Origin: a virus
Virus record (IMG/VR): IMGVR_UViG_3300009605_000020
Coordinates: 14,405 to 78,404 of that record
DNA length: 64,000 bases
Strand: one strand, 5' to 3'
Translations under genes and position numbers: made by a program
Part shown: in pieces, positions 44,401-63,042 of the stretch
Numbering within the stretch: position 1 is the first letter of the stretch
Layout: each line of letters starts with the position of its first letter
Notes under the pieces: model-generated
What the model was told of the DNA's origin: nothing
What the model saw: the letters and a program-made list of their open reading frames with translations, nothing else
The model's database searches: none

Positions 44401-46788
44401 ATAATCGCCAGCAACAGAACTGGTTACAAAATTTTCATATGGATATTTTTCCGGTCGTACGCGAACTGCCAAGTTCCATCTAGTATTATTATAAACATCC
44501 TCGTAAAGATCGCTTTTTAGAAGCGGCATACTGCCGCCAGCTGTGCTCGTTAGTACAAAACGAACATTCGGAGACCTAAGCTCATCACGAACAGCAAATA
44601 CTTGGAAATTACTTTCATCGAGTGCAGTCCAAGTAGTGTCGGCGCCGTTGGGAAGCGCGCTATGCATTCCGAATATTGATGCTGAAATAAAATTCCTACT
44701 TATATAATAGGGATGACTCTCGGGCGCCTTAATGGGCATCACCAAATCTACTTCGGTAGTAAAAGCAAATCCGCCAGTTAAATTAGTTGATCCGGTTATA
44801 AAAGATACCGAATTGGCGTTGCTAGAGTCAAGGAATTGATAGACCGATCCCTGAATGTTTTCTATCGTGTTGAAATCAACAAACTTTTTGGGTTCGACAA
44901 CTGCGCGCGCATTGTTTCGATACTCGTACTCAATATTGTTAGCATATAAATTAAATTTAATCAGCTCGTCATCAATTCCAAAACAACGAATTAAATTGCG
45001 AAATGCTTTTTCAGTACCTTTAGACTTATAAATATAATTGAGATTATTATAGATATTTTGATATATCGTATTCTTAATATCACTCAACGACTTATCATAG
45101 ATAAGATCTTCACTTCGATCCGCTAATTTTTCTAAAACATCAGCATCTATAAAAAGCTCTGGCGACACAAGGCCGGCTGATTCTAAAAGCCTATTGGCAA
45201 AGGGGAGTGGTTTTTGGCTCCCATGGGGATAAGTGATATCTTTTAACGTATTTAAAGATTGAATTTGTAATTGTAGCGTATCAAAATAACTTCCCATTAT
45301 TTGGGCTAGACTCTTTAGTTCTCCAGAAGCCTCCTCGTCCTCTTCTAAAATCCATCCCGGAATTGAGTTATATATGGAAGCGTTATTTTGAATATCGTGC
45401 CGAGAGCCGCTACCTTCTAATTTTGCCTCCAGAGCTACTACCGCCGGATGGAAAGAATATATTATAGGATCTTTAAACTCTTTTATGGCCGCTCTAGAAA
45501 TAACTATCGCAGATCCAGTATTTCTTGAGTTGGAAGTGTAACCAGTCCAGGTACCGTTTGAAATGCGCCCAGAGTAATCAAGCACCATTCTATCTGTAGA
45601 ATCAATGCCCGTAATTCCTTCATTAAACTTATAATAAACGCCCAAATCTGTATTTACCAAATTAGTAGTATCTACACCGGGAGCTGGGTCCGAATTGGTT
45701 CCTCCACCTACTTGCGATATCCAGTATCGACCTATATCTTTAGAGCTTCTTTGCTTTTTCCAATATCGGAATTCATCCAATGAGGCGGATAACTTACCTG
45801 CTCCCATCATTGCCGCCGAGCCAGATGGGCTTGTAATTAGCGCGCCAATATGTGCTTTAAGAGTCCCGGTGATCTGGTTAATACCCACTGATCCGAGCGT
45901 TTGTTCGTTGTTTAAGTCACCATTAACATAAAATTTAGTATTAACGCCGACAGAAGTGGATACACAAGTAATTGCATAATGATGCCAATTGTTATCAGCT
46001 ACCGAAGCGGTTGTTAGAGTTGCACTCCCGATGGATACATCTTGAAATCCCGTTGTTCCTGAAAGTATCGTGAGCCTAAAAGGATTTAATCCATCGGTGG
46101 CGCCAGTTAGTTCTATGCTTAGGCGCCCGTAATCAACACTGGAAGATAACTTGTTGTTCCAGAGATCAAAAATAACTTCTTTTTCGGTAGATCCGGTTAT
46201 AAATTGATCTTTCTTGAGCCAGAATTCAACTGAAACACCTTTGTCACGGAGATTAAACTCCAAATTGGAAGCTCTATTCTTTGCGGGATCCCAATAGTTT
46301 GACCCAGTAAACTGAACCATAGGATCCGACATACCATGCGGATTTTGATTGGGGCCTCCTATAAAAGAAATATACTCCCGAGTAGACGGAGTTCCATAGC
46401 CATCAGCAGTTATAGGACCACTAGAAGCACCCCATCCATCAGCAGATAAAATAATAAATCCGTTAGTGCGAGGATATTGATTATCTAATAAATATAGATC
46501 TATATAGGTGGAATTATTTTCCCATTCCAATTTTTCTTTAAGAGAGCCGTCGTAGGGATAGGTGCCATAGACCCTTCCAATAGAGGCTTTGTAATACTCT
46601 GCGGCCGACCCATAATAAGCAAAATTTTCTGGTCGTGAAAAATCTATTCTCGGAATAAATCTGTCTTCGTGTATTACATCTTGTTCGTGATACCCAACAG
46701 ACTCAACCTCAGAGGCAAGCTGCTCCTCGCTCATGTCAGAAATATTTTTTACACTGCTAGCAAGTTTATAGGTATCCTTCAAGCTCAT
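35485..46788 (-). CDS. Giant baseplate wedge protein (gp7/P2 gpI-like) with multiple LamG/ConA-like lectin domains (3767 aa)
   Basis: YIYKSKGTEKAFRNLIRCFG wedge motif; LamG signatures SVEFW..WHHYAIT..LDEFRYW, FTVSTWV..WYHIV..DQAIWDRQLS, WQAWI..WTHLAITY..SDASFWNTTLT; downstream of gp6. Confidence 0.75.
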   Translation of the reverse strand: MSLKDTYKLASSVKNISDMSEEQLASEVESVGYHEQDVIHEDRFIPRIDFSRPENFAYYGSAAEYYKASIGRVYGTYPYDGSLKEKLEWENNSTYIDLYLLDNQYPRTNGFIILSADGWGASSGPITADGYGTPSTREYISFIGGPNQNPHGMSDPMVQFTGSNYWDPAKNRASNLEFNLRDKGVSVEFWLKKDQFITGSTEKEVIFDLWNNKLSSSVDYGRLSIELTGATDGLNPFRLTILSGTTGFQDVSIGSATLTTASVADNNWHHYAITCVSTSVGVNTKFYVNGDLNNEQTLGSVGINQITGTLKAHIGALITSPSGSAAMMGAGKLSASLDEFRYWKKQRSSKDIGRYWISQVGGGTNSDPAPGVDTTNLVNTDLGVYYKFNEGITGIDSTDRMVLDYSGRISNGTWTGYTSNSRNTGSAIVISRAAIKEFKDPIIYSFHPAVVALEAKLEGSGSRHDIQNNASIYNSIPGWILEEDEEASGELKSLAQIMGSYFDTLQLQIQSLNTLKDITYPHGSQKPLPFANRLLESAGLVSPELFIDADVLEKLADRSEDLIYDKSLSDIKNTIYQNIYNNLNYIYKSKGTEKAFRNLIRCFGIDDELIKFNLYANNIEYEYRNNARAVVEPKKFVDFNTIENIQGSVYQFLDSSNANSVSFITGSTNLTGGFAFTTEVDLVMPIKAPESHPYYISRNFISASIFGMHSALPNGADTTWTALDESNFQVFAVRDELRSPNVRFVLTSTAGGSMPLLKSDLYEDVYNNTRWNLAVRVRPEKYPYENFVTSSVAGDYIVELRGTHVQDGVVLDTFTLSGTINSPPAGFISDRKRLFAGSHRQNFTGSVLEFSDVKVAAARHWLTYLDDTTLTEHANDAFNCGTSNPHWYAFPFQPEASFGEIPELDTLALNWDFNQNTGSNSSGQFSVADLSSGSTQLAASRYDWLGPILNNQHTGRGDFFGANSTTAIDKDYIVNIRQNLPENLRSVDMISVLTSEEQEEFTPATRPVTFYFSFEKSLYQVISEEMINYFATIRDMHTLIGAPVNRYRMDYKDLSKVRQAFFLNVQNSTIDFDKFYEFYKWFDSSLSTMLQQLVPASADVAQNIRTMIESHILERNKYHSKFPTLNTKDPIIEGRICNILDPLGGWKFNHHPLNNLQSTNAYWWKDRATRLKPPLASGDAAVDFSREKIFESAGPQRPGYADDRSQFWDDNCADSRPYKLSVSRPLQLPGGNPRGQYPNKIWDFVFPATYPAGPLIKGMNIPANVMLTFEKDVETLKDITDIITPNQKKRLAWGINARINKHQSGSFDYQEAKGHLLAPFNLYSSSVATGYNQTVRERFMKGVMITDLHNDIYGELNGSPLQGPFTEQYVGGREYRHVALNKFDALKKGPNNLDYVEDRPEGFKLLLGMCTDRKLVNTTYNLVTSSNIGANSKKILTACKWPCTNHIFNTGWYMSAGAFDGSSDEFTVSTWVSASSELLDKGLASGIWSFGNEGAGTGFKRLRTIGTASSPAGMRLFFGAEYSAGGPTDAEWVLDVPLTSSKYLTEGPGWYHIVTAYNSGSQPPNVFINGVSASFSTWQTPAGNLVGTTGAGSVGAWYIAAYSGWSVKSTFHSGAFADQAIWDRQLSDAECLELYGVGGETTTTCTTISPLLTVEKKEIAVTSSGPINLTASAGLSVGLMSWYRFGDSPGDTLLNVDDAASEPPLTSLSFQCDGIPATIPVSCPEYMLDLTPADVAVAGGGTDLTCQITSSTYTNETSGALGIVDPQYPSPNAPAVSPPYLFDRPKGNLLRNVGTKRPVNVQNIQMTTGSTILGNYRMNYDVVQSNARSINDLFFREQSFDFSLYPLTVHHKLDNSRPPLALSGDRVVNTKAIELDDQPPGLRKYWSWSGSAPEIAYMNANTAETWQAWINLTASGQTNILFQDSDGVHAGDNFDTRRIKTDPNNKVIFLAKWDGGGTTAEWESPASAIPLNKWTHLAITYNGSSTSNSPTMYIDGAPVPVTEVVTPVGTIDPYVMSSAYIYIGWHTGENWAGYVSDASFWNTTLTSDQANKLYSQATLNLLGGELIAVRSNLIFWFRMGDGPGDSIAGIANIVGGASADLVHVGTPPGIIVDINPQACTRFGDKFALPNRDGRNSNQTIFVNKFSAPGGYEVQSRGYLEPAHEEVSPYNALPFRNRSVIDYGLSGSASVDPLAAQTITVVDQIGKNRGRNQRLTLHCGQFGHDAAYGTIPTDTYVTVPSYHKVNRNTKYRMETGSYFTASVYDNGWVTHPIPQSDRQYAWITASLTTGTMMLGYMGLSGGLPQSWPTIPESEVYSVETNNPGWRFWGQRIDSATWISMLGPTTGIPTDFVGLNTIVADPLDSSAQTLGYPSMSLERSGLVYKSNYINSTINYGIAPGNGFGVSYLSPDETTGPGGILNSILLNRGGPYGWPTWKQIRTRQHPVVRYQREHNILSQRDEPLPIYVGDYATAQQMKGLKGNTFKQYIEQPISSRHHALEFAFEGGQWNNIPGVPDAYNQMWASAPGTPIPPDNSVVAKVSWGNNIDYFSHQRLDNRLDLVPNVTFGQPYETLVNFALDASLNNSADSLIEYTERIYPREVNAYRTRTRTREEYSTDQIWLTPRGRRSQNPGFFADFRLNAVGTNVPNASMWPLDAHYPFSSMLADISQSTLPILGWGGTGFSAGELQNRYTRFGTYQGCLWQRANIAPGPLYNMRVFVGSGSSPGSGMGICDPVWGGDTYWDAPVQAGKDPYQPYEEYAEFIRLKGKDHTIVPEFRISEHIENLVINHNSDWLTDLDETTGLFDLTGGEVPEGEGGVVPGTQTDIIANSSQNNFYSVYGHTDFLKYFKVIDDDLNNKNINEGMRLKRKEIQLGCSAYIKFLPYKGFYPAERAAALTGLFSSSYFPHVESSFSSSVTGWQHTTAGPETRGAMRPLLEPLFAPGILFNTIKSGIAVSSFVIFNTSSTPKWDIGLVPKGESILDINAGSGGPSDLAGTKIATSTVWTTLPEGTINFGVRYSSSLNPQLNQNNFTPPASWWPPATPGGWYVNYLDAQGGYGFQRIPFEAMIKPSAYFGVNSISGAYIYDNGLPPSASFRQDQDPTKYKYRVGWNGMGSSLYELAIDNFLCETLNFFQDDTFGHMANFVSAREDEFASVTSGSYYAMTVDLRRPIINPGGDTTGSGQLVTIPDRSKFEMYERASAFGPPFAGNAYAGAFNCISPGSACAWEANFDPLTPSYYDGHGRATILFKAQYSGKPALSDILATSEFMYARSNNTADPLSIEAWGVHGPSAGSVWQQHIDQNVNLAETLISVPPDTDSNQDRWLIQSKFETPVLNFSKYTVSGSAASASITLPPNSLVPGYPHPLAPTTDTLSKKIISKGMWHQYGDIPAGGETIELSVDTPSYINSPTHGVLEEDNINSLASVVKFNTGSPKPVGNLRRQQTLAEAIIVVPFTVNQFGTRRSFFKLTEDMHGPGQASYLRCVDILRRYILPPKFDFVTNPASTGPTMTTELNPLSPVNSTGGPTMTTRLNPLSPVNSTGGPTMTAQLDPLSIGAGGSPTTISPEKILFYAFEFSVSISRQDLADIWQNLPPNIGTQFQKPDPLFIREKNLIDEMYNPETTLRWLVFKVKKRAEKDYNVFVKKNLTTDLATIPPNIESKYSYNWPYDYFSLVELVKIDTTVQYSPETAAQMMLDPNLGQDLLFPPSLGSGTPPLNILGQPYGSLPSKEPPSMRAPSLPLWMSPSRSMSSSGALRSVQRILQMMTKKRKI
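36161..36288. repeat. 54-bp coding tandem repeat (2 full copies plus partial flanks)
   Basis: gtcatagtcgggcctccagtggagttaacgggacttagcggattaag starts at 36161 and 36215, with a partial copy at 36269; encodes (LNPLSPVNSTGGPTMTT/A)n. Confidence 0.9.
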
Positions 46789-50518: not shown

Positions 50519-53500
50519 TTAGTCATCACATATTTGCCTCTTAGATGAGTCACTAATTGATGAATTAGTAACATTCATGGCGTCTTCGAGTTTATTATCA
50601 TGATCTCGCTTAAGTAGACCATAAATTAAGTAGAATATTCCCAAGGGGCCCGGAGGTGCCATAAATAATCCCGGTATTGTCCCGGTGAAGTTAAGGCCCT
50701 TTGTAGAAAAAGTTGGAAATGCATCGATACCGGCATCGCCCAGCTCTTGGGCGGCCTTGTCGAGGGGATCCATGTTTCTTAATTCTTCATTTAGTTTACA
50801 GAATATAAGGTCATTCAATAGCTTCTCCACATCTATTCCCATGGCTGCTATGGTGGGCTCTGAATCTAAAGCTGTTTGTACAACACCAACAAATTGTTGT
50901 ATTGCTACCCCGGTTAAGTCTCTTATTACTTTTGTTATAGCCACGTGAGGATCTACTATCTCAGCAAGACCCTTCAAGATATCCAAAGGAGTTTCAATTA
51001 TTGCTTTTACAATATACATTCCTATATTTGGTCTGTCTATATTGTTTGCTCCTGCATTTTTCACGCTGTCTTGAATCGAATGTATAGCTCTTTGGCTACG
51101 CACCGGACGCAAAGAATCGCGATGTGCCGTAACTGTTATCAACAATTCGGCTATAGCATTTTTAGTATCTGTGAAAACCGTTCCCATCTTGGAGAAGTAA
51201 GCATTCGTTAAATAGAAATTATTAAATAACAAAGTTGTCACAACAAGGCCCCAATCCAACGATTTCCTAAAGACTAAATCATATAACTCAGATTCTCTAA
51301 TAACACGTGTGTCTCCTTCAAGAAACCAACGATTAGAGCCGAAGTTGATTGCAGCTGCTCCATCTTCTGAGAAAATATTAATTTTCTCGCCGTCGCCCAG
51401 GGCGCGCCCGGAGGGAATTTCTCCGATCGGAATTCCTACTATCATATTTTCTCTAGTGCGCGCGGGGCCAACATACATCGGCACGTAGGCTTCCTCCTTG
51501 TTTAAAAGGGTTTCTAGATGCGTGCTTGAGTCGGCCGCATTAGATCCTAAAATTTCACCAAAGAGGTCTATTAGTTCCTCATTTTTCGCTTGCGCCCCAG
51601 AAGTCATAATTTCATCATCTTCTACAAGCCTATCAAATGCCGTTTCATCATATTGGCCCCCTAGAACAATTTCAGGTGAGAACCTACGTACACCTACCAC
51701 AGTTACCTCGTCGGTGTTAGATTGCATGGGAGGATAATAAACCAATCGGTAATATAATTTTGGATTATATAACCAACATTCTGTTTCTACACCGATTGCT
51801 TCGGACCGGATCATCTGGACGCGGTTTGCAATAAGTTGTAGCTTCTCTGCACTCGCAAAACCATTAACGAAAGATTCGCCGGCCGGAATATAAAATCGCT
51901 CCTCTAGATCAAGCTGGGCGTCCCGGACGAGACCTGTCGCCGTAGTTTCACCCACAACAACATCTAAATCCTGGCCAGCAGATTCTCCGAACGGGCCGGC
52001 CGAATAATTCGGATCAATTGTATATTTTGAAGCAGACCATCTAATAACTTTTTCGAATCTAAAGCCGCCATAAGCTAAAAGTTCGCTTTCTTTATCATTA
52101 AGTCCGAGGTCCAGCTGACCAGAAGCAATAACAAGACCATCACTTCGGGCTTTAAAGGGATGATCATTGCGAGAGTGTAAAAGGGTATCCGAAGCACCTA
52201 TAGCATCGTGTATAAAACCATTTTCAAGAGATCTATCGAGATTACACCTTGAAATAATATTTTGAACGGCGCTAGCCGAATCTTTTAGTCTCTTCGCTAA
52301 TAAGTAATTTAAGGATTTCTCATACATAGAGGGATCGTTTTGGCTCTCAATTAAATTTTCTCGCGTGAGGCCAAGACTCTCTAACACTTCAGTATCTAAT
52401 GTCGTTCTTCGATTAATTTTTCGTTTCATGTACTTTGTAACAGTTTTTCGGAACAATGGGTGGAAGTTTTCGACCGTTACCAAATGCAATAATTTATTCA
52501 TCGATGTCGTAACAGCGCGACTTATATAACTAACAACTGCGTCTAACGTAAAAATTTCTGTAAGTTTGAATGCCGAGAAAACAAATATATTTTGTAAATA
52601 AAATTGTACAAGGTGGACTTGCAAAAATAACAAGACTACTCCAAATCGTAATGAGTTTCTTAATATTTCCTCTGGTGTTAGGTCTGTATCTTGGCAACTA
52701 GCTTCTATAAATTCTTTTTTGACTTCATCGATAATTGATTGATAATCTAGCAAATCACCGATCTGGCTGCTCGCCTCTTCCGAGTTGGTCGAAACCATCA
52801 ATAAGTCTAGGACTTTGTCTGTAGAAAAAGAGCCTCTCTCTAAAATGGATTTACTTAATTGTTTAATGAGGCTTGCCATAGCTGTAGGATGATACTGATA
52901 TTTCATGGCATCAGAAAATTTGTTTATCTTGTTATTAACAATATTCCATTTCGCGCTGTCGTCGGGGCCCCAGTCCTTATCTAAATCGTTCCTCTCGATC
53001 ATTTTTCGCATTGAAGTAACGGCGAGGTTGGACAATATCCCTTGTGCGGGGTTGGAATTTTCTTCCCCTATAAGCTCTTCGCCTAGTCCGTATAAATCGA
53101 TATGCGAGCCGGCATGCATCTCTAGATCTCCGGGGCTCAATGTTCCTATTTTTAATTCATCAAAAATATAAGATACATCGTAATCGGATGTTCTTTCCGG
53201 CGTTTTAACCCTAACAATAGGCGCGCTTTGCTCAGTTACTTCACTGTAGCTGGGATATAGAAGATCTTCGTTTACGGTCTTATTAAATGTCTTGCGAAAA
53301 ACGAATTTCATTCTATTCTCTGTAGTGCTGTCATTGGACGCGGCCTGGGAGTACCAATCCTCCATAGTTTGGAATTTTCCTATATGGACTGGGAGATCAT
53401 CCTCCTGATGCTGGCGCTCCCACTCCTCATTCGCCAATAAAGCATATTTGACGGCGCCTCCAGTATACTCCCAGAGATATCCTTCAGATGTAAAGGGAAC

Positions 53501-56500
53501 CTCCCCCTCGATATTCCCGGTACCAGCGAACACAGTCTGAATATAGTCGGAGTAATCAGAATGGCCTCCGTGCTCTCCGAAGTCCCAATCCCATCCGGGC
53601 CCATCAAAAATTTCTACCAAGCAGTGGGGAGGATAGCCGTACTCAAGGCCGAAGGGGCCGCGGATGCCTGGACCGAGGTCAGGGCCGTTGAATATTTCTT
53701 GCCACGTGGGCCAGTCCTCCTCATCGAGGCTCTGGGCCTGGAGGCCCCGGGGCAATGGGGGAATCTCATCAGGTGGTGCCATCAATAGCGGCGAGGATGG
53801 CGGCGGTGCCGAAAAAGGTTCTCGGAACCACATAGGAGCAAAGTCACGATCCTCTTCGTTTACTAGGAAGTCTTCCATTTCGGCCGCGGCGGTGTTGCTA
53901 CCTGGGCGATCATCAGGGCCGGGTGCAAGGACGTCCTCTGGCATGTTAGACGGATGTATAGTCTCAGTCTCCACAATTACCGATCTATTATGGCCTCCGA
54001 CGTTCTGGTTCTGGAAGCTCTCCGTAGTCACCACAGTAGTGGCATCGTGTACACGGGCCCTTTTTGTTTGAGAATACAGCCATTGCATATAAGGATCATA
54101 ATAAATGTCATAATATGACATTTCGTCGGTACCAAACTCCGCAAAGTCCCGGGACGCTTCACTATAGTTTGCAACCCTAACCCTGGGTAGTTTATCGTTT
54201 TCTGCCTTCCAGTCGACGATGGCTTGCAGCGCTTTACTTCTGCGGCGTCGGGTGGCTGCATTGTCTCGACTGCCGACATCGTCCCTAGCATCTTTTAAGG
54301 CATCAAGTTCGAGTTGTTGTTGTTCACTATAGGCCTTGCCCATGCCGGCGGTGCCGGCAGACGTGTCATCGTAATCCGCACTATACCATCGTACTGGAAA
54401 GACGAGGGCGGCCGACGTCCCATATGCTTCGGCCCACGCGGCCTGGCCATATTGCGACACGCCGGGGCCCCTATAAAAAGCAGACTTCTCATTTTGTGCA
54501 ACGTGGTAGTTTCCTCGTCCTTTGAGGCTCTGGCCGGCCCACGTTCTGGCAAAGTCTATAACACTTAGTATCTTTGTGACGCCCTCCATAGTACCGCCTG
54601 GGGCTTGGGGATCCCAAGCCGGGCCCTGAAGCCACGCCTCATACGCGTAATCTGAACACTGGGCGTCAGCATTTTCTCCTAGGAGTTCTTGGTTATTATA
54701 CCTATCAACCTCCTCTTGAATGGCATCGCGGCGATCCCAGCCAATTATAAGTTCTGCCATGTTGTCCGACGGAGGCAGCGGAATTTGTGTTATGAAGTCA
54801 GTTACATCTGTCTCGTCTGCTTCTGAGATGGGCTGGCCGCGGTCGGCGCGGAGACGCGTTGTTTTTTCTGTGGAGAATGACGGAGTTGTAAGGGCGCCGT
54901 CAAAATTCCAAATTGTATCTCCTGGCTCGCCGGCGCCGCCTTCGGAGGTCTCCAAGAGGGTGTCATACGTTTTATCAATTGTGGTCGGAATAAATTCATA
55001 GAAATCATCTCTGAACGATCGGGGAAAAGTATATATAGTGGCGGCAGCAAAGCCCCCCGCAATTGCATCTCTGTTGTTCCCCATCTGATTTGACACGTCT
55101 GCCATACCTGAAAAATTAAAGTTATCGAATACATCTCTAATTATTGACGACGCCTGGTCAATCTGATCTGCTGGGAGGCCGGTAAATATAGACGCGAGGC
55201 TCATCGAGCACTCCGATTCGAGGCCGGCCAAATCTTGAGTCATAACTGCTTGCATTTTTTCAACAAGAGTTTCTATGATCGATCCGGCTGTGCGGGGCGG
55301 ATCCTCCCCTTTTGCAACGGATTGTTCAAAGCCGGCACTAGAACTTAGGGCTGCGTCCATTAAAGCTGTTGCTGTTTTGTTGACGCCTATTTGAGGCTTT
55401 AGAAGAATTGTTTTAGAGCCGTCAGCAGCATGATAAAAGCTAGGAGCTATTGACTCTATTAAAACACTCATGAGTTGCGGAACAGAACGTTCAGCTAGCG
55501 GGTTGGGAATATAGTTTTCGTTCTCCGGACAATTCAAATTAATCTCAGGAGGAGTTAAATCAATACCTTTAAGCATGTCTAATAACTCTCTGACATTGTG
55601 ATCATCTACGACAGCAAGAAGATCTGGTACACAAATTTCTCCCACGTTGGGCAAAATATCATTATTTATAATAGACTGGCACAACTCTCTAACGTCGGCT
55701 ATGTCTCCGATACATTTAAAAAAGGACACGACTATAGCTTCATTGGTGAGAGAGCCCAGGATTGAAGAACTAGCTTTTGTAGCTATAAAATTCATTACCG
55801 CGTCTATGGTGTCACGAGAAGCAGATCCCAATAATAATTGACATACCTCTATGGGTACTAAGATTTGCGAGACTTGCGACAAAAATCCTTTTCCAAGGGA
55901 TGCTGAAATATTATAATCTCCAAAACAAATATCGGCGCCCGCATTTCGATCTAGAAGGTTTAATCCATCGTCTTCTGGGGCCGGTAGATTTAAATTAATG
56001 AGGAGATCGGCAATATCTACAGCCCCATACTCGCCGGCCTGAGCTGCCATGGCGGCCTGTTTGATATTACATTGTTGTTTAACAAGCTCCACTAAAGCTT
56101 TTATAATGGCCTTAAGGGCTTCGAACAAAGCATCTATAATAACTTTTTCTATTTGTTCTTGTAAATCGCCAGTAATGGTAAACATTCCTGCAAGTTCTTT
56201 CTCGGTCGGGAACTTAGGGATTGTGATAGGTAATGGTTTCTTTGGCTTTTTAAAAAGACTGCCGGCCGACTCGATAAGACTCGATAAATCTAAACTCATA
56301 GAGGGGGCGGATCCGCTTTGTCCCGCCAGAATACACAAAATTGCTTCGCGTATCAGTGCGTCCAGCCCAAAGCGATTGATAACTTCTGTAATGATTCGGA
56401 CTGGCTCGGATCCTTGTATTTCCTCAAACATGTTTTCAATTTCTTTACCGGGGTCTTTGGCGGCTTTTTCGAATCTTTTGGTTTCCTGTAACCAAATCTT

Positions 56501-57646
56501 TTTCTTCCTTTTTGGGTCTTCTCGTTTCTTTCTAGCTGCAGCTTCCTGCTCAGCGGTTTGGGCCACTTCTTGGGCAGCTCCGGCGGGATTTTCAGGATCT
56601 ATGCCCTTAACGGTGCCGGGTATATCATTAGAATCCGCAACCTGGGCCGGCTCAGAGTGGGAGGGTCCAGAGTATTTGATCGCATATTTAGATCCAACAT
56701 TCTTAGAAGTGGAGGCAATATTTTCTAAGAAATGAATAAAACTGCTACGCTGACCTTGTCGCTTGTTAATGCTCTTGGCTAAGCCCACTATCTTGTCCCA
56801 GCGGGCCATGTATATTCTAGTTTGAACTATGTTTAGAGGAGCGCTTTCTAATGTAGGGAGCAAGCCAATTTCCATCGAGGGGCTGCGCGCTCCTCTTTTT
56901 GAAGGAACGTCGCTAGAGACTGCCACGATATTAAATTTATTGTCAAAATTTATACTAATGCTGGTGCCCGAATTGGGCGATGTAGATACCTTATTTAAGG
57001 AAGCCAAATCGATAATCTTATTTATGGCTGCAGAAATATATGAAAATTCTTTCATAAAATCAACGCCGGGCTTCACTTGACCATCAAAATATTCGTATTG
57101 TATAGAGAATTTTTTAAATAACTTTTTAACTAAGTTTATGTCATCATTAAGAGTATCTAAAGAGAAAGTTGTTCCAGAGCTAAAGCCTCCATATCCCCGG
57201 GCATCCGCCCAATATTCCGTAGGCGATCTGGTATACTGAGATGGAGGTATAGTAACCAGTTCGCCGCTACTAGATAAAAATAGTTTATTCCTGCCTCTTT
57301 TTTTAGATAGAAGGTCTCTAGTACACGAAAACCACACCCTGTATGTATCCCCGGGCCTATTGCCCTTTCGGATTCTTTCCAATTTGAGGGACGCTAGAAT
57401 ATTATTAAAAATAATAATTGTTGGGGCTGAGGTCCCGCCACTAGCATCATGCACCTCCCACCACAAAGGCAAATAATATTTCATAAATGCTATGGCGGCG
57501 CGCCACTCTAAATCCCCGCGGTGCTGAGATACTTCTGCCTGGTCTTCATAATCTGTTTGAAGAACGATATTATACTTGTCAGAATGATAGTAGGGAATAT
57601 TTCTTTCTTTGCTAAACCAGTCTAGTATTAGGTTGGGGGTTGTCAT
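50519..57646 (-). CDS. Very large, probably virion-associated protein (2375 aa; hub or tape-measure-like role unproven)
   Basis: Between the spike and gp25 genes; largely helical, scattered Cys, GC-rich acidic central insert, hydrophobic C-terminal PPGPLGIFYLIYGLL. Confidence 0.55.
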   Translation of the reverse strand: MTTPNLILDWFSKERNIPYYHSDKYNIVLQTDYEDQAEVSQHRGDLEWRAAIAFMKYYLPLWWEVHDASGGTSAPTIIIFNNILASLKLERIRKGNRPGDTYRVWFSCTRDLLSKKRGRNKLFLSSSGELVTIPPSQYTRSPTEYWADARGYGGFSSGTTFSLDTLNDDINLVKKLFKKFSIQYEYFDGQVKPGVDFMKEFSYISAAINKIIDLASLNKVSTSPNSGTSISINFDNKFNIVAVSSDVPSKRGARSPSMEIGLLPTLESAPLNIVQTRIYMARWDKIVGLAKSINKRQGQRSSFIHFLENIASTSKNVGSKYAIKYSGPSHSEPAQVADSNDIPGTVKGIDPENPAGAAQEVAQTAEQEAAARKKREDPKRKKKIWLQETKRFEKAAKDPGKEIENMFEEIQGSEPVRIITEVINRFGLDALIREAILCILAGQSGSAPSMSLDLSSLIESAGSLFKKPKKPLPITIPKFPTEKELAGMFTITGDLQEQIEKVIIDALFEALKAIIKALVELVKQQCNIKQAAMAAQAGEYGAVDIADLLINLNLPAPEDDGLNLLDRNAGADICFGDYNISASLGKGFLSQVSQILVPIEVCQLLLGSASRDTIDAVMNFIATKASSSILGSLTNEAIVVSFFKCIGDIADVRELCQSIINNDILPNVGEICVPDLLAVVDDHNVRELLDMLKGIDLTPPEINLNCPENENYIPNPLAERSVPQLMSVLIESIAPSFYHAADGSKTILLKPQIGVNKTATALMDAALSSSAGFEQSVAKGEDPPRTAGSIIETLVEKMQAVMTQDLAGLESECSMSLASIFTGLPADQIDQASSIIRDVFDNFNFSGMADVSNQMGNNRDAIAGGFAAATIYTFPRSFRDDFYEFIPTTIDKTYDTLLETSEGGAGEPGDTIWNFDGALTTPSFSTEKTTRLRADRGQPISEADETDVTDFITQIPLPPSDNMAELIIGWDRRDAIQEEVDRYNNQELLGENADAQCSDYAYEAWLQGPAWDPQAPGGTMEGVTKILSVIDFARTWAGQSLKGRGNYHVAQNEKSAFYRGPGVSQYGQAAWAEAYGTSAALVFPVRWYSADYDDTSAGTAGMGKAYSEQQQLELDALKDARDDVGSRDNAATRRRRSKALQAIVDWKAENDKLPRVRVANYSEASRDFAEFGTDEMSYYDIYYDPYMQWLYSQTKRARVHDATTVVTTESFQNQNVGGHNRSVIVETETIHPSNMPEDVLAPGPDDRPGSNTAAAEMEDFLVNEEDRDFAPMWFREPFSAPPPSSPLLMAPPDEIPPLPRGLQAQSLDEEDWPTWQEIFNGPDLGPGIRGPFGLEYGYPPHCLVEIFDGPGWDWDFGEHGGHSDYSDYIQTVFAGTGNIEGEVPFTSEGYLWEYTGGAVKYALLANEEWERQHQEDDLPVHIGKFQTMEDWYSQAASNDSTTENRMKFVFRKTFNKTVNEDLLYPSYSEVTEQSAPIVRVKTPERTSDYDVSYIFDELKIGTLSPGDLEMHAGSHIDLYGLGEELIGEENSNPAQGILSNLAVTSMRKMIERNDLDKDWGPDDSAKWNIVNNKINKFSDAMKYQYHPTAMASLIKQLSKSILERGSFSTDKVLDLLMVSTNSEEASSQIGDLLDYQSIIDEVKKEFIEASCQDTDLTPEEILRNSLRFGVVLLFLQVHLVQFYLQNIFVFSAFKLTEIFTLDAVVSYISRAVTTSMNKLLHLVTVENFHPLFRKTVTKYMKRKINRRTTLDTEVLESLGLTRENLIESQNDPSMYEKSLNYLLAKRLKDSASAVQNIISRCNLDRSLENGFIHDAIGASDTLLHSRNDHPFKARSDGLVIASGQLDLGLNDKESELLAYGGFRFEKVIRWSASKYTIDPNYSAGPFGESAGQDLDVVVGETTATGLVRDAQLDLEERFYIPAGESFVNGFASAEKLQLIANRVQMIRSEAIGVETECWLYNPKLYYRLVYYPPMQSNTDEVTVVGVRRFSPEIVLGGQYDETAFDRLVEDDEIMTSGAQAKNEELIDLFGEILGSNAADSSTHLETLLNKEEAYVPMYVGPARTRENMIVGIPIGEIPSGRALGDGEKINIFSEDGAAAINFGSNRWFLEGDTRVIRESELYDLVFRKSLDWGLVVTTLLFNNFYLTNAYFSKMGTVFTDTKNAIAELLITVTAHRDSLRPVRSQRAIHSIQDSVKNAGANNIDRPNIGMYIVKAIIETPLDILKGLAEIVDPHVAITKVIRDLTGVAIQQFVGVVQTALDSEPTIAAMGIDVEKLLNDLIFCKLNEELRNMDPLDKAAQELGDAGIDAFPTFSTKGLNFTGTIPGLFMAPPGPLGIFYLIYGLLKRDHDNKLEDAMNVTNSSISDSSKRQICDD

Positions 57647-57650
57647 AATA

Positions 57651-58769
57651 TCAATTAGTATAGTTGTAAGTGCTGTTTATGTAGGCTCCGGACTTGCCCA
57701 GCGCTTCCGCCTCTTTTCCTAGGCCAGCGAAGGGGAACTGCAAATAAGTAAGCTTGACACCTGTGGTGGCCATCATGTGTTTATTTATTCCTATCTCTAC
57801 CTTTTCTACTGTATCGATCATACACTCAATAGCCGCCTGTATCGACTGCGGACTTTGGCTTGATTCGCTGCCGTAAAATTTTGTAAAATGTGTGTGATTC
57901 ATTAATCCGGAATTAAAATCTTTTTGGAAGGTGACAAAATTATATAACAATTCTCTTAATGAATTTATTAATTTTAATGTTTCCTTCATCATGGCCACAA
58001 GATTGTCACCCTTAACCAGAGGCTGCATGTCTGAGTCATCGTTAAGAGCAATGAGGTCAATGCCCGGATTTCCCATTATTTCGCCACCTTGAGAATTTTG
58101 TGTGTCTGTCTTGGTTATAAGTTTAATTCCTTCTCGCCCAACAATTCGAATAGCATCTGCTTTCAAACCAACTGCGGATCTAGGCTCGTCATAAGAAGTC
58201 GTGCCCATCATGGCACCCTTTCCATCTGCAAGGCCTTCTGGCCCCATATAAGTATCAATATCTGATTTTTGAGAGATATATACGCGCGCCGCATCCATAG
58301 TAAAGTCGGGATTTTTGAATATTTTTTTTCTCTTCTTGTCTTTTTTAGCAGCCCTTGCACCCATGCGACCAGCGACAAGGTCAATTGCTGCGCAGTGTGT
58401 ATTTCCCAAGCCTCCGAAACCAGAATCGGGGCCACCGGGGCGGTCGACTCCCAGTACGATAAAGGCATTCCCTTTCTTTATAACTCTTTCGGCTGGTGTT
58501 TTGATAAACGCGGGAACATCTCCGTTTAAACGTTGACCTCCGCCAATACCAGAAAAATCTAATTTGACCTCAATTGGCATGTCACCAATTTGATCTCGGA
58601 TATCCGGATCGAAATTTTCATGGTCGATTGCTTTTTTGTCCATCCTAGGCTTAGAGTTCAAAGAGGCTCCAGCAACGGAAGAAATAATGTTTGCTGCCAC
58701 TTGAGTAGCAGCAGCGAAGGCTTCAGCTGGGTCGGGCATGGGTGGTTTCTTTTTAGTATCTTCTGCCAT
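57651..58769 (-). CDS. Central tail spike C-terminal moiety (gp5C/gpV/gp138-like)
   Basis: Short beta-strand run (AVGLKADAIRIVGREGIKLIT, IDLIA), QPLVKGDNL, then NHTHF HxH motif typical of metal-loaded spike tips; baseplate context. Confidence 0.6.
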   Translation of the reverse strand: MAEDTKKKPPMPDPAEAFAAATQVAANIISSVAGASLNSKPRMDKKAIDHENFDPDIRDQIGDMPIEVKLDFSGIGGGQRLNGDVPAFIKTPAERVIKKGNAFIVLGVDRPGGPDSGFGGLGNTHCAAIDLVAGRMGARAAKKDKKRKKIFKNPDFTMDAARVYISQKSDIDTYMGPEGLADGKGAMMGTTSYDEPRSAVGLKADAIRIVGREGIKLITKTDTQNSQGGEIMGNPGIDLIALNDDSDMQPLVKGDNLVAMMKETLKLINSLRELLYNFVTFQKDFNSGLMNHTHFTKFYGSESSQSPQSIQAAIECMIDTVEKVEIGINKHMMATTGVKLTYLQFPFAGLGKEAEALGKSGAYINSTYNYTN

Positions 58770-58811: not shown

Positions 58812-60164
58812 CTACTTATTTAGCAGAACTGCTAAAATAGAAAACCCTAGCACACCGATAGCGATGGCCCTATGGCCTTCGGAGCCTGGGTGAAGACCGT
58901 CGCCACTATTATAATTTTGGGATAACCAATCGCGAGAACCAGGCTTAATAATGCCTGTCTCTGTAGAGTTCTTCTCGGTAGTGGAAAATACCTCCCACGG
59001 GATCGCCCCATTAATAAGGCCTCCTTCCTGGCTGTGGATCCACTCATTATATTTTCTTGTTGCTGTCATTAATCTTATTCGTTTCTCGCTAGACCACACA
59101 CTTGATCTACTACCATCGGCAAGTAGGCGCGATTCGGCGCCCCATCCATACCACCCATGTAAAGTTATAACAAATCTTTTCATGCTAGACCTTTCAGATC
59201 TCAAATAATTTAAGAGAGTCGAAAGAGCATTTATAGCTCCTTGCGGGGTATAGCCCTCGTCATCTTTAATGTTGACGCCCATTCCGTTGGCCCCTCCAAA
59301 GATTATTACCGCGTCATAGTCATCTAATTTCACACACCCTGATGCGACATTTGCTTTTAAATGAGAAAGTATAGAATTAGTCTTTCCTGCTAGTACCATA
59401 CTACCTTTCGCGATTCTGTCCAGATTTAGCATTCCATCGGCACTACCCGCCCACGTGCTGTCGCCGGATACAAAGGATGCGCCAAGAGCCAACACTCGTG
59501 GCTTGGGTGATCGAGTAGATGGTCTGAAATATTCATCGCAACCTTCTATTAAAGGAGGGGGTGGTTCATAAAGGGCAGGATTTGTTGGTACGGTCATCCG
59601 AGCTTGTCCCGTATTACTAAATTGCATAGAAGCTTTATCTTCACCTTGAAGGGGGATTCTTCTATCCCATTGAACTTCTACTATAGTGGCCAGGGCGCCC
59701 CTTTCTTGGTCTTCAAACACTATTTGAACCGGAGTTCCATAATCAATTGGCCCATAGTTTTCTCCAAGCGGGGCTAAGGCATCTCTGCAAATATTAATCA
59801 AGGACTCGTCTGCCTCTCCGGTGAATTTTTTTGGCAGCTGCTTAAAACTATCCAATTCGGCTATAAAGACCTTGTAACTATAATACGTTTCAGATTTATG
59901 AACTCTATCATAGCTTGCCAAAGTGCGCTGAAAATTAGATGCAGCCCACGGTCGCGGCTGTTGTGTAGATCGAATTATAATTCCATTCCATCGGCATTTT
60001 CCCTCTAAAAGATCAGCAGAATAATAATTCTCATTGCTATTCCGAGTAGCCTCGGACACAACAACGCGAGATGGGTCGAAACTTGGCTGAGTAACAACAT
60101 TGGTCATACTGTTCATCTGACCAAATCGAATCTGAGTAATTTTGTTTATCTTTTTGTTAGTCAT
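58812..60164 (-). CDS. Carrier domain plus SGNH/GDSL hydrolase
   Basis: Shared N-terminal domain; SGNH blocks LALGASF (nucleophile Ser), IFGGANG and GDGLHPGSEGH (DxxH). Confidence 0.78.
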   Translation of the reverse strand: MTNKKINKITQIRFGQMNSMTNVVTQPSFDPSRVVVSEATRNSNENYYSADLLEGKCRWNGIIIRSTQQPRPWAASNFQRTLASYDRVHKSETYYSYKVFIAELDSFKQLPKKFTGEADESLINICRDALAPLGENYGPIDYGTPVQIVFEDQERGALATIVEVQWDRRIPLQGEDKASMQFSNTGQARMTVPTNPALYEPPPPLIEGCDEYFRPSTRSPKPRVLALGASFVSGDSTWAGSADGMLNLDRIAKGSMVLAGKTNSILSHLKANVASGCVKLDDYDAVIIFGGANGMGVNIKDDEGYTPQGAINALSTLLNYLRSERSSMKRFVITLHGWYGWGAESRLLADGSRSSVWSSEKRIRLMTATRKYNEWIHSQEGGLINGAIPWEVFSTTEKNSTETGIIKPGSRDWLSQNYNSGDGLHPGSEGHRAIAIGVLGFSILAVLLNK

Positions 60165-60169
60165 TATAA

Positions 60170-61474
60170 TTAAGCACTTAGTGTCCCAAAAATTTGACCA
60201 GCTGTACTATCTTTGTCTAGATTCTGGCGAACGGTATGCACTGCGTCCAGTATAGGCGTAATATATTTGGAATGGGCTTTGTTGCCGCCAGTCCCACTCC
60301 ACCAGGATTGACCTCTTTCAAGATTGCCAGCCCCTTCGTGATATTCGTCGTATTGTATAGGAATCCCCGCCCACTCATAAGCTATTGACTGAGCAGCGCC
60401 CTCGGCGTCGTCGTGACGGCCGGCAAAAAACATTCCAGCTCTTCCCTGCTTCCACATTATCAAAGCAGTGCCAAGTATATCTTGAGTTTCGGCACCATAA
60501 TATTTATCTTTAATGGCGTCGGTTCCCCCAGGATAATCGGCAGCTACGACTGGTATAATTAGTTTCATAGTATCTGGAATTATCTGATAGCGCCCAGCAG
60601 CAAAAAGATTTGTGCGACCTTTATCTTGTTGGCTCTGTATTTGACTAACTTTCACACTACCTATATTCGTACCGCCGAATAGTCTAGTGCTCATACGTAT
60701 GGAGCGGTAATTGTTGGCGCTTACTTTATAATTTCCCGCATCATACTGCGCCGCTCCAGCTTCGGTAGTTCCTATCACATCAAGCACCGGCTTGAACAGG
60801 TGTGAAATACTTTCAATTTCAGAATAATTTAATTTGAGGCCCGCACCAATTCGTTTTGGTTCGTGATTGCCGGATTGACCCACAAGCCGAACTTGCCGCG
60901 GAGCGGATGGTGTAGAAACCACGTTTTTAAAAAGGCCGGCAGAGCTTTTTTCTCCCTGGAGCGGGATACGCTTGTTGTGCTGAACATCAACAATAGTGGC
61001 TATGATACCTTTTTCCTGGTTATCAAATACCACTTCAACGGGAGTCCCATAATCTAAGATGCCCCAGCTTTTTCCTATGGGAGCAACCGCATCACGACAA
61101 ATATTGATTAAGTTGTTGTCCGCATCTTCAGTAAATTTGGTAGGCAATTTTCTAAAACCATCTAACTCAGCTATAAATATTTTATAGGTATAATGAGCCT
61201 GGGCCGGAGGACTTTTACTAAAAGAGGCCATGGTTCTTTCAAAGTTTGAGGTTATATAGGGTCTATTTTGTACAGTCGTTCTTAATACGATAGCGTTCCA
61301 TTGACATTTCCCTTTTAATAAATCCCCGGTAAAATAGTCTATATTGCTGCCCTGCAACGTACTGGTTACTCGAACTCTAGAAGGATCAAATGATTTGCGT
61401 CCGATTGAGTCCTTTAAAGGATTCATTTGACCAAACCGAAGGTCTTTAAGACTATTAATCTTTTTATCAATCAC
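60170..61474 (-). CDS. Carrier domain plus lambda-R-like (GH104) lytic transglycosylase/muramidase
   Basis: Shared N-terminal domain; LDVIGTTE (catalytic Glu), AAGRYQIIPDT, ETQD, EWAGIP, GQSW. Confidence 0.8.
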   Translation of the reverse strand: MIDKKINSLKDLRFGQMNPLKDSIGRKSFDPSRVRVTSTLQGSNIDYFTGDLLKGKCQWNAIVLRTTVQNRPYITSNFERTMASFSKSPPAQAHYTYKIFIAELDGFRKLPTKFTEDADNNLINICRDAVAPIGKSWGILDYGTPVEVVFDNQEKGIIATIVDVQHNKRIPLQGEKSSAGLFKNVVSTPSAPRQVRLVGQSGNHEPKRIGAGLKLNYSEIESISHLFKPVLDVIGTTEAGAAQYDAGNYKVSANNYRSIRMSTRLFGGTNIGSVKVSQIQSQQDKGRTNLFAAGRYQIIPDTMKLIIPVVAADYPGGTDAIKDKYYGAETQDILGTALIMWKQGRAGMFFAGRHDDAEGAAQSIAYEWAGIPIQYDEYHEGAGNLERGQSWWSGTGGNKAHSKYITPILDAVHTVRQNLDKDSTAGQIFGTLSA

Positions 61475-61476
61475 AA

Positions 61477-62739
61477 CTATACCACCGGGTCAAAGCCCAG
61501 CCCCCTAAGATTTCCTACAAATCTATCCGATCGGGCCGGTCGATGTTCTGCAGCGGGTCTTTCTATATTATGAAGCCACCAATCGTGGTACTCTTGTGAA
61601 GTCGTGTATTTACTGCAGTCAAGAACTGTAGAATATTGTGTTTTTAATTTGTGAGCTACAAACTGTATTTGTTTTTTGTACCCCGATTCTCCAGTTAGTA
61701 CCTTGAGCTTTTCCTCATTGCTGCTATTGGTAACTCCGGCCCACTTTAACATTTGCCATCCGAGAGCATGCTCTACGCAAACATTCATTTGAAATAACCC
61801 AAAAGAGCAATAAACTCCCTTACGAGCGCTCCACGCGCCGGGTACATAATCAACATAAATTCCGCCCGGAGAGCCGGGGCCGCCTTGACGACCAGATGAA
61901 GGGGGATCGCCAGGAACGTTTGGGTCAAATTTAGATTCGTTCAAAGCATTAACCACAATTCCATGACGTAAAGCAACACATTGGATGTCGCCATAGGTGG
62001 CAAGATCCTGAAATAATTGTTGCCCATTTCGTACACTGGCTTCTGACATCTTAATGGGTGCTCCGGAAGGAGCTGTTAGAGAGGGCCCAGGAGGGGCGCC
62101 CACAGTACCGGCTGTTCCATAGTGGCCTCTGTCGCGGCGGGCGCCAGAGATTACATTCTTGAACATATTATCGGGAGTGTCACCGGGCTGAAGAGGGATA
62201 CGTCCATCATAAAACACCTCGACTACTGTAGCGAGGCCGCGGGCGGTGGCAGAACCATGATTCTCGAATATCACCTCGATGGGTGTACCATAATCTAAAT
62301 TGCCCCAATTTTTTCCCAATGGCGCAACAGCATCGCGACAGATATTAATCAGATTTTCATCAGGCAATTCGCCATTCGGCCCAAGCGTAAAGCGTTCAGG
62401 AAAGCCGGCGCCGTGTGCTGCATCTTTTTCTATAATAATAATCTTGTAGCTATAATAAAGTTCCGTCCCCTTGGTGGTCCGATCTAGCGCCGACAAAGTT
62501 CTTTGGAAACTGGAGGCTAGCCATGGACGCCTCTGTTGAGTAGATCTTAGTACAATAGCGGGCCAGCGGCCTTTTCCTTGTAGAAGATTTGGAACAAATT
62601 GATTAATGTTCTTTGCCTGTATGGCTCCCGTAGCAGTGATGGTCGCTGTATCAAAATAGGCGGTACCCTGTGAACTTTCTAAAGGATTCATCTGGCCATA
62701 TTTAATATCTTCTATACTGTTAATTTTATCATCAGCCAT
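61477..62739 (-). CDS. Carrier domain plus phage tail lysozyme (Phage_lysozyme2-like)
   Basis: Shared N-terminal domain; GIVVNALNESKFDP, FGLFQ, QIQFV, IERPA. Confidence 0.75.
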   Translation of the reverse strand: MADDKINSIEDIKYGQMNPLESSQGTAYFDTATITATGAIQAKNINQFVPNLLQGKGRWPAIVLRSTQQRRPWLASSFQRTLSALDRTTKGTELYYSYKIIIIEKDAAHGAGFPERFTLGPNGELPDENLINICRDAVAPLGKNWGNLDYGTPIEVIFENHGSATARGLATVVEVFYDGRIPLQPGDTPDNMFKNVISGARRDRGHYGTAGTVGAPPGPSLTAPSGAPIKMSEASVRNGQQLFQDLATYGDIQCVALRHGIVVNALNESKFDPNVPGDPPSSGRQGGPGSPGGIYVDYVPGAWSARKGVYCSFGLFQMNVCVEHALGWQMLKWAGVTNSSNEEKLKVLTGESGYKKQIQFVAHKLKTQYSTVLDCSKYTTSQEYHDWWLHNIERPAAEHRPARSDRFVGNLRGLGFDPVV

Positions 62740-63042
62740 CTACTCTTCCTCGCCGTCATCATTTAGTATATCATAGAGTTCTTCTTTGTCTTCTTCTGAT
62801 AGGCCTGTGACACCCGATTGTTGTTTTTGGAGTAGAGCTGTTAGCTTTACCATCTGCTCATTAGAACGTTGTAGGTTTTCTACATACTTGGCAGCGATGG
62901 AGCCTAACTCGCGACGAGCAGAGTCACCACTCTTCATATCGTTCATGGCATCCATAAGCAATGTTTTAGCTAATGCACGATCTTCTCTAATATTGCGCGT
63001 TGCCTCGTTAATATAATCTTCTAAATTTCGCCGCTTTCCCAT
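62740..63042 (-). CDS. Helical hypothetical protein (100 aa)
   Basis: All-alpha (AKYVENLQRSNEQMVKL), acidic tail; overlaps the end of the sigma gene. Confidence 0.6.
   Translation of the reverse strand: MGKRRNLEDYINEATRNIREDRALAKTLLMDAMNDMKSGDSARRELGSIAAKYVENLQRSNEQMVKLTALLQKQQSGVTGLSEEDKEELYDILNDDGEEE

Follow-up and report, generated by a model that had tools for sequence, protein, structure and literature searches.

Tandem carrier genes with exchangeable cell wall enzymes suggest a genetically split, gp5-type central spike in an uncultured marine myovirus

We analyzed a 64,000-nucleotide stretch of DNA from an uncultured virus (IMG/VR record IMGVR_UViG_3300009605_000020, positions 14,405 to 78,404; here called the window), in which three adjacent genes, paralogs A, B, and C, each join a common N-terminal domain, the carrier, to a different predicted cell wall enzyme, the head. 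The window covers the 3′ 64 kb of a virus contig of 78.4 kb, estimated to be 47% complete, and its source is an uncultured marine, distant T4-like myovirus. Our favored reading, to which we assign a probability of about 0.65, is that a central spike protein of the T4 gp5 type has been split genetically, that A, B, and C are each a copy of its N-terminal half, and that the three are interchangeable on one needle and hub. The product of the next gene, P0023, is the candidate needle.

Three tandem paralogs share an N-terminal carrier domain

A first-pass annotation, made from the sequence alone, had reported three tandem genes with a common N-terminal domain. Both are real: the open reading frames (ORFs) were found again, and A, B, and C can be aligned over a 183- to 195-amino-acid (aa) N-terminal domain only, with pairwise BLASTP alignments stopping near residue 195. 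Carrier identities by BLASTP are 46% for A and B (E = 1.5e-56), 48% for A and C (E = 6.6e-53), and 51% for B and C (E = 3.4e-74). All of the motifs quoted in that annotation (KIN..GQMN, LLxGK..W, RP..F.RT, Y.YK, LINICRDA.AP.G, DYGTP, AT(I/V)V, and RIPLQ) are present in the alignment; RIPLQ falls at residue 180 of A and at residue 169 of B and C, and it is followed by a short Pro-rich or low-complexity linker, after which the sequences are unalignable. The contig carries exactly three copies of the carrier. In direct sequence searches the family seemed tiny (19 representatives in 1.84 billion; 21 clusters). No match was obtained by tblastn with the carrier or with P0023 against 50,697 phage records, by an IMG/VR pattern scan built from the A/B/C carrier alignment, or by carrier and P0023 hidden Markov models (HMMs) run against baseplate regions in immuto and Mel-JY01, the most closely related phages in culture.

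The carrier is predicted to adopt a spike-type OB fold

In an AlphaFold2 (AF2) model of B, residues 1 to 54 are disordered and residues 55 to 184 form an oligonucleotide/oligosaccharide-binding (OB) barrel; the carriers have in common a conserved N-terminal arm of about 50 residues that precedes this barrel. Residues 55 to 184 superpose on residues 7 to 128 of T4 gp5 (1k28_A; Z = 6.4, root mean square deviation of 4.3, 95 residues), the longest alignment listed. The top VIA-align match of the model is the phage P1 baseplate chain 9vzk_q (Z = 7.3), and the OB parts of other spikes score between Z = 4.8 and 6.3; these include Mu gp45, VgrG1, AFP, and PVC (all at Z = 5.6 to 6.0), the spikes of the Algoriphagus and Streptomyces contractile injection systems, and the phiKZ spike. 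A Foldseek search of BFVD matched cyanophage proteins named "Baseplate hub + tail lysozyme" (E = 3.7e-5 to 7.5e-4) and "Gp5 N-terminal OB-fold" (E = 2.3e-4), and a Foldseek search of the PDB returned only uS12, an OB protein (E of about 0.01). In the ESM Atlas, the carrier's nearest named clusters are Gp5_OB (0.93; 181 of 256 features, 17 hits) and Phage_base_V (0.91), which we treat as a lead only.

Judged by this fold and language-model evidence, the shared domain is modeled as an OB fold of the phage-spike/gp5 type. The earlier proposal of a gp5-type OB fold therefore holds at the level of fold, with the structure predicted and compared with gp5, gpV-type, and VgrG spikes. The carrier probably works like the gp5 OB adaptor, to which it is probably related, if very distantly. 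Superposition on gp5 demonstrates a fold rather than membership in the Gp5_OB family, and the carrier cannot be filed in that Pfam family.

The best BFVD matches to B are the 440- to 472-aa UniProt viral proteins A0A1B1IUR3, A0A1B1IUR4, and A0A1B1IUT8 (E = 3.6e-13 to 6.8e-6). Two of these accessions are adjacent, and the proteins probably derive from tandem genes of the family in the deposited genome of an uncultured virus.

Carriers precede P0023 in a conserved baseplate module

Homologues of P0023 number more than 641, and at least 498 loci in IMG/VR carry this candidate needle gene. We ran the carrier HMM over 80 P0023 loci and took copy numbers from the 64 that have both flanks. One carrier is present in 49 of these, two in 7, and three in 4 (the window and loci L004 to L006); the other 4 were missed at the strict threshold. 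In 60 of the 64 loci, the gene or genes immediately before the P0023 homologue encode the carrier domain, and 3 of the remaining 4 have weak matches.

The order of the module is fixed: a late-sigma-like gene, a gene for a 100-aa protein, one to three carriers, P0023, a giant protein, gp25, and gp6. Carrier genes belong to the baseplate operon at all loci surveyed, and the P0023 homologue directly follows them in nearly all loci, two of which have one short intervening ORF. The giant protein (1600 to 2660 aa) separates the needle gene from gp25 at almost every locus that reaches that far and is split into parts of about 1600 and 500 aa in many of these loci. Two loci have bare carriers of 192 to 195 aa, with no enzyme, in the same slot (L076:7306-7884 and L080:7396-7983; weak HMM matches), which argues that the carrier domain has a structural role of its own. 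A survey of related genomes for copy number and C-terminal domain swapping, as the first-pass annotation had envisaged, thus finds the swapping, which is described below, but not three copies as the rule.

The enzyme heads are exchangeable cassettes

Downstream of the linker the three paralogs diverge into heads that the same annotation had called a Phage_lysozyme2-like muramidase, a lambda-like transglycosylase, and an SGNH hydrolase, and these assignments are broadly matched by family searches, fold, and catalytic motifs. The head of A matches Phage_lysozyme2 (PF18013) weakly (E = 0.01; 16.5 bits against a cutoff of 28.2), as do six of eight type-A relatives, all under the cutoff (best E = 1e-4), and residues E268-S269 are invariant in the A head family. 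The head of B matches endolysin PHROGs 90 and 37890 (E = 4e-12), and its fold resembles lambda lysozyme (1am7_A; Z = 5.2 over 118 residues), with MltC, Tse3, and phiKZ gp144 at Z = 4.8 to 5.1; E238, the Glu of the TTEAG motif, is conserved, the motif reading TTEAG/ESG among relatives. For the head of C, Pfam matches to GDSL/SGNH families are weak and under the cutoff, and the type-C profile finds GDSL hydrolases in the PDB, again weakly (E = 0.005). SGNH blocks I (G228-x-S230), III (G291-x-N293), and V (D422-x-x-H425) are invariant in seven relatives, and the best PDB match (4k3u and related entries) is the Neisseria O-acetyl-peptidoglycan esterase Ape1. The predicted activities are a lysozyme-like glycosidase for A, a lambda-type lytic transglycosylase for B, and an SGNH esterase for C.

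The carrier bears at least 13 enzyme types in at least 18 sequence clusters. Glycan-cutting heads comprise muramidase, GH24 Phage_lysozyme, SLT, GH19, Phage_lysozyme2, and lambda-like transglycosylase domains; the others are Amidase_2, VanY/M15, M23, GDSL/SGNH, GDPD, DUF2272, and DSP-phosphatase-like domains. One locus (L012) encodes a carrier with a GH24 Phage_lysozyme domain, a gp5*-like architecture. Elsewhere several enzymes stand on one chain: muramidase, GDSL, and M15 in L040; muramidase and GDSL in L029; and VanY and Amidase_2 in L085. Single-chain carriers of 844 to 1344 aa were seen at L040:5328-7862, L077:3941-7975, and L085:3485-7126, and serial enzymes on a single chain are an alternative way of loading several activities. 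P0019 and P0032 combine the carrier with a DSP/PTP-phosphatase-like domain whose Pfam matches (E = 8e-6 to 8e-3) fall under or close to the cutoffs; such a head is unexpected for a tail lysin.

Heads also move between carriers. The carriers of L4b and P0009 are 97% identical and their heads are unrelated, that of P0009 being a GDPD domain, and P0006 is an A-like carrier bearing a B-type head. The DNA of loci L004 and L005 is about 100% identical over 6.4 kb except for two blocks at 57 to 83% identity; the blocks coincide exactly with the heads of paralogs a and b, and the breakpoints lie at the linkers. The diverged heads differ by 0.5 to 0.8 synonymous substitutions per site (dS), with a ratio of nonsynonymous to synonymous rates (dN/dS) of about 0.25 to 0.3, values that mark them as functional alleles brought by recombination. 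Enzyme heads are exchangeable cassettes between related phages. This exchange, together with the range of head types, supports the earlier suggestion that the carrier genes behave like polymorphic, evolved VgrGs.

P0023 is a candidate needle

In T4, cleavage of gp5 yields gp5*, which holds the OB domain and lysozyme, and gp5C, which forms the beta-helix. Both are present with gp27 in the mature complex, (gp27-gp5*-gp5C)3; trimerization is driven by gp5C, and free gp5* is monomeric (PMC3004832). Paralogs A, B, and C end in an enzyme domain, without the C-terminal beta-helix of gp5, and P0023 may supply the missing beta-helical part. Its model has a beta-rich middle (about aa 94 to 250) and a long, confidently predicted helical hairpin (residues 254 to 290 and 307 to 344), with H292-x-H294 at the turn. 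ESM Atlas leads for P0023, at 0.82 to 0.84, are Gp5_C, Gp5_trimer_C, DUF2345, and base-plate lysozyme clusters. We lean toward P0023 being the needle, and the pairing of a carrier gene with a following P0023 gene fits a genetic version of the gp5*/gp5C split of T4.

Under our favored reading, each carrier would be a gp5*-like subunit made of the N-terminal arm and OB adaptor, a flexible linker, and one cell wall enzyme. The needle part, which T4 makes by cleaving gp5, would here have a gene to itself, the one that follows the carriers (372 aa, HxH tip). The needle protein would trimerize, and the OB domains would then seat three carrier subunits at three equivalent sites between hub and needle. 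Upon tail contraction, the enzymes would be carried into the periplasm, where they would open the peptidoglycan locally. The three carriers would compete for equivalent sites, so that virions would probably have mixed sets and no fixed A:B:C trimer, and recombination of cassettes at the linker would adapt the tail tip to the wall chemistry of the host.

Carrier phylogeny favors interchangeable subunits

In the carrier tree, a single clade (99/98) unites the carriers of A, B, and C with those from the closest relatives of the window, and the L004 trio is its sister clade. By this phylogeny, carriers group by genome lineage and not by enzyme type, and an approximately unbiased (AU) test, with groups picked after the tree was seen, rejects enzyme-type carrier clades (p-AU = 2.7e-5 for lysozyme-like and 5e-4 for SGNH). 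The head of A is orthologous to that of L4a, and the head of C to that of L4c (53 to 55% identity), and gene order is the same in the window and L004. Lineage-grouped carriers with orthologous heads imply either that carriers evolve in concert within a genome or that heads are re-dealt among them; both would fit one common docking site, and neither would fit three position-specialized carriers.

The first-pass annotation had explained three paralogs by the three positions of a trimer, and in that form the idea finds no support: copies vary from one to three, some relatives place three enzymes on a single chain, carrier clades are not position specific, and heads move between carriers. Its alternative, interchangeable spike types, survives in part, in that interchangeable subunits fit better than one of each. 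If the three paralogs were equally expressed and mixed at random, 6/27 of spikes would hold all three types, 18/27 two types, and 3/27 one type, so most virions would carry mixed spikes. Slightly short of an even chance, in our estimate, is the fuller proposal that virions carry mixed heads, with two or three wall enzymes per needle drawn from tandem paralogs whose cassettes are exchanged between cocirculating phages. Complex prediction for an A:B:C carrier heterotrimer gave an ipSAE of 0.00, was run without controls, and carries no weight either way.

Alternative explanations

Several results weigh against our favored reading. Confidence in the AF2 model of B is middling (mean predicted local distance difference test score of 59; 60 to 80 in the OB core), and the model's fold scores (Z = 5 to 7.3) tie with those of generic OB folds such as IF1, eIF1A, uS12, and PAN. 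At the sequence level, neither Pfam Gp5_OB (PF06714; E ≤ 10) nor Phage_base_V (PF04717) has a match on the contig, hhalign of the carrier alignment with T4 gp5 gives a probability of 0.2%, and the PDB yielded no match to the carrier profile or in sequence searches. The beta part of P0023 is poorly modeled, with no fold obtained for it in the monomer model, and fold searches with the P0023 model returned generic helical hairpins only. Searches of the contig for gp27 (PF09096), DUF2345, and Gp5_C found none, so that gp27 goes unrecognized on a contig that is 47% complete. The choice of groups for the AU test belongs with these points.

An obligate A:B:C heterotrimer, in which each spike holds one of each paralog as a defined three-enzyme warhead, would account for the exactly three copies in the window and L004 to L006 and for the order (lysozyme-like, X, SGNH) common to the window and L004. 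The spacers of 0 to 5 nucleotides (nt) suggest coupled, near-equimolar translation, and specialized VgrG heterotrimers provide a precedent (PMC10433429). We nevertheless regard this arrangement as unlikely: the seven two-copy loci cannot fill three positions one to one and 49 loci have a single copy, type-specific carrier clades are absent, heads move between carrier backbones as in P0006, and we observed no feature that would enforce one-of-each assembly. No more probable are alternative homotrimeric spikes, each virion having one paralog type and the population three kinds of spike as a bet-hedge over host wall types. All paralogs do have the same docking domain, carrier identity within the window is just 49 to 53%, which could favor self-association, and head polymorphism is evident at the population level. 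The T4 trimer, by contrast, is built by gp5C from a gp5* that is monomeric (PMC3004832), one needle gene serves all three paralogs here, and cotranslation from a single operon favors mixing.

Less likely again is docking of the carrier away from the axial gp5 site, whether on the needle side, on the giant 2375-aa protein, or at the hub rim, which would permit more than three copies and all paralogs in each virion. The conserved arm (residues 1 to 54) is predicted to be disordered in the monomer, suggestive of a partner-bound segment, the giant protein gene is always adjacent, and OB folds are generic adaptors; set against this, the fold and language-model neighbors are specifically spike OB domains, the module has no second gp5-like OB gene that we could see, and enzyme-less carriers are kept in the same slot. 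Most improbable of all is that A, B, and C lie outside the virion as soluble endolysins, or enzymes for lysis from within, that share a wall-binding or regulatory domain. Endolysins do use the same head families, but the genes hold a fixed place at the head of the baseplate operon in at least 60 loci with no holin neighbor, their N-terminal domain resembles spike OB domains rather than any known wall-binding domain, some carriers have no enzyme at all, and multienzyme chains of up to 1344 aa would be atypical. The reading that we retain is that of interchangeable gp5*-like subunits on one needle.

Genomic context of the module

Every gene of the window lies on the minus strand (Table 1). The portal is 38 to 43% identical to the portals of Flavobacterium phage immuto and Microcystis phage Mel-JY01, and elsewhere the contig encodes a terminase, major capsid protein, gp13-like protein, sheath, tube, and gp26-like hub protein.

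Table 1. Positions of the carrier paralogs, the candidate needle gene, and neighboring genes in the window
Feature	Coordinates	Strand	Description
Late-sigma-like protein, 233 aa	63021-63722	-	Conserved upstream border of module
100-aa helical acidic protein	62740-63042	-	Stop abuts ATG of A; conserved upstream border of module
Paralog A, 420 aa	61477..62739	-	Carrier OB ~aa 1-195 (62155-62739), Gly/Pro-rich linker, Phage_lysozyme2-like glycosidase head ~aa 236-420
Paralog B, 434 aa	60170..61474	-	GTG start 2 nt past A stop; carrier OB ~aa 1-184 (60923-61474), lambda-lysozyme/lytic-transglycosylase-like head ~aa 215-434
Paralog C, 450 aa	58812..60164	-	ATG 5 nt past B stop; carrier OB ~aa 1-183 (59616-60164), SGNH/GDSL hydrolase head ~aa 220-450
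P0023, 372 aa, candidate gp5C-like needle	57651..58769	-	42 nt past C; own GGAGA Shine-Dalgarno site
Giant 2375-aa protein	50519..57646	-	Module context; conserved position between needle gene and gp25
gp25-like baseplate wedge subunit, 131 aa	50087..50482	-	phrog_261, E = 1.6e-21
gp6-like baseplate wedge subunit, 596 aa	48264..50054	-	

The intergenic spacers are 0 nt between the 100-aa gene and A, 2 nt between A and B, and 5 nt between B and C, which suggests coupled translation. The sigma-like and 100-aa proteins are 90 to 91% identical to their L004 counterparts, compared with 45 to 55% for the adjacent structural genes; from these identities, the pair looks like late transcription factors of the gp55/gp33 type under strong constraint rather than parts of the spike. 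The 100-aa protein was ruled out as a PAAR-like tip: it is helical and acidic and is without Cys/His or PAAR motifs.

The giant 2375-aa protein, which has no Pfam match, includes Pro-rich stretches, acidic stretches, and a C-terminal segment that is hydrophobic. We considered it as a fused hub and spike and found no evidence for this; it could be tape-measure-like or ejected. Downstream of the wedge genes, a 3767-aa protein (35485-46788, minus strand) with three Laminin_G_3 (concanavalin-like lectin) stretches is probably a giant fiber or adhesin. Across the first 24,000 nt of the window, G+C content falls from about 0.49 to 0.51 (1 to 10 kb) to 0.38 to 0.41 (12 to 24 kb).

Relation to known spikes and significance

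T4 gp5* (PDB 1K28) likewise has an N-terminal OB adaptor, a linker, and a peptidoglycan hydrolase and is encoded beside baseplate wedge genes, and in the mature T4 particle the needle part is a separate polypeptide, as it would be here from a separate gene. The two differ in that the split is genetic here and proteolytic in T4, that the carrier occurs in one to three tandem copies, that at least 13 enzyme types take the place of the lysozyme, and that the carriers have the conserved 50-residue N-terminal arm; neither Gp5_OB nor Gp5_C of Pfam is matched by sequence. An HxH helical hairpin closes the putative needle, whereas that of T4 is a plain PAAR-capped beta-helix. Closest by structure among named proteins are the cyanophage "baseplate hub + tail lysozyme" gp5 homologues (S-T4, S-RIM14, and S-CAM9), which are the best named matches to the whole B model and also come from marine T4-like myoviruses. 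These, in contrast, are single chains of 700 to 1000 aa in which OB, enzyme, and needle are apparently fused, and tandem duplication is not known in them.

Specialized (evolved) VgrGs of type VI secretion form heterotrimers of different VgrGs (PMC10433429). Like the carriers, they are gp5-type OB spike subunits with a variable, polymorphic, exchangeable effector head, and a genome with several paralogs can place different effectors on the same trimer. In VgrG, however, gp27-like and gp5-like parts are fused and the effector follows the helix; the carriers are without the gp27 part or helix (183 to 195 aa of arm and OB), and their heads are wall-degrading enzymes only. The carrier OB also differs from Phage_base_V/gpV spikes in that no beta-helix or prism directly follows it. 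In Staphylococcus phage 812 (Kayvirus), the central spike has an OB domain, beta-prism, coiled coil, and GDPD-like petal, and a hub protein carries a CHAP "cleaver" (PMC13433997). Phage 812 thus also places several wall-degrading activities on the axial baseplate core and has an OB spike with a phosphodiesterase head, comparable to the carrier and GDPD head of P0009. Its enzymes, unlike those described here, sit on different structural proteins (spike and hub) and not on carrier paralogs, and the spike keeps OB and prism in one chain.

Full-text literature searches returned no description of split, tandemly multiplied gp5 carriers. Textbooks present gp5 as the tail lysozyme, and it is regarded as a single, fixed protein. 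If our reading is right, a large uncultured clade has split the gp5 device into a docking barrel with its enzyme and a separate needle, and the barrel would be a universal holder for glycosidases, transglycosylases, amidases, M15/M23 peptidases, esterases, a phosphodiesterase, and a phosphatase-like domain. The pattern points to host envelope chemistry as a selective target at entry, alongside receptor binding. It would also supply those engineering virion-borne lysins with a natural scaffold and catalogue, and the module makes the heteromeric phage spike a directly testable question. Mixed heads, if true, would be the phage counterpart of specialized VgrG heterotrimers and would allow combinatorial adaptation to host envelopes.

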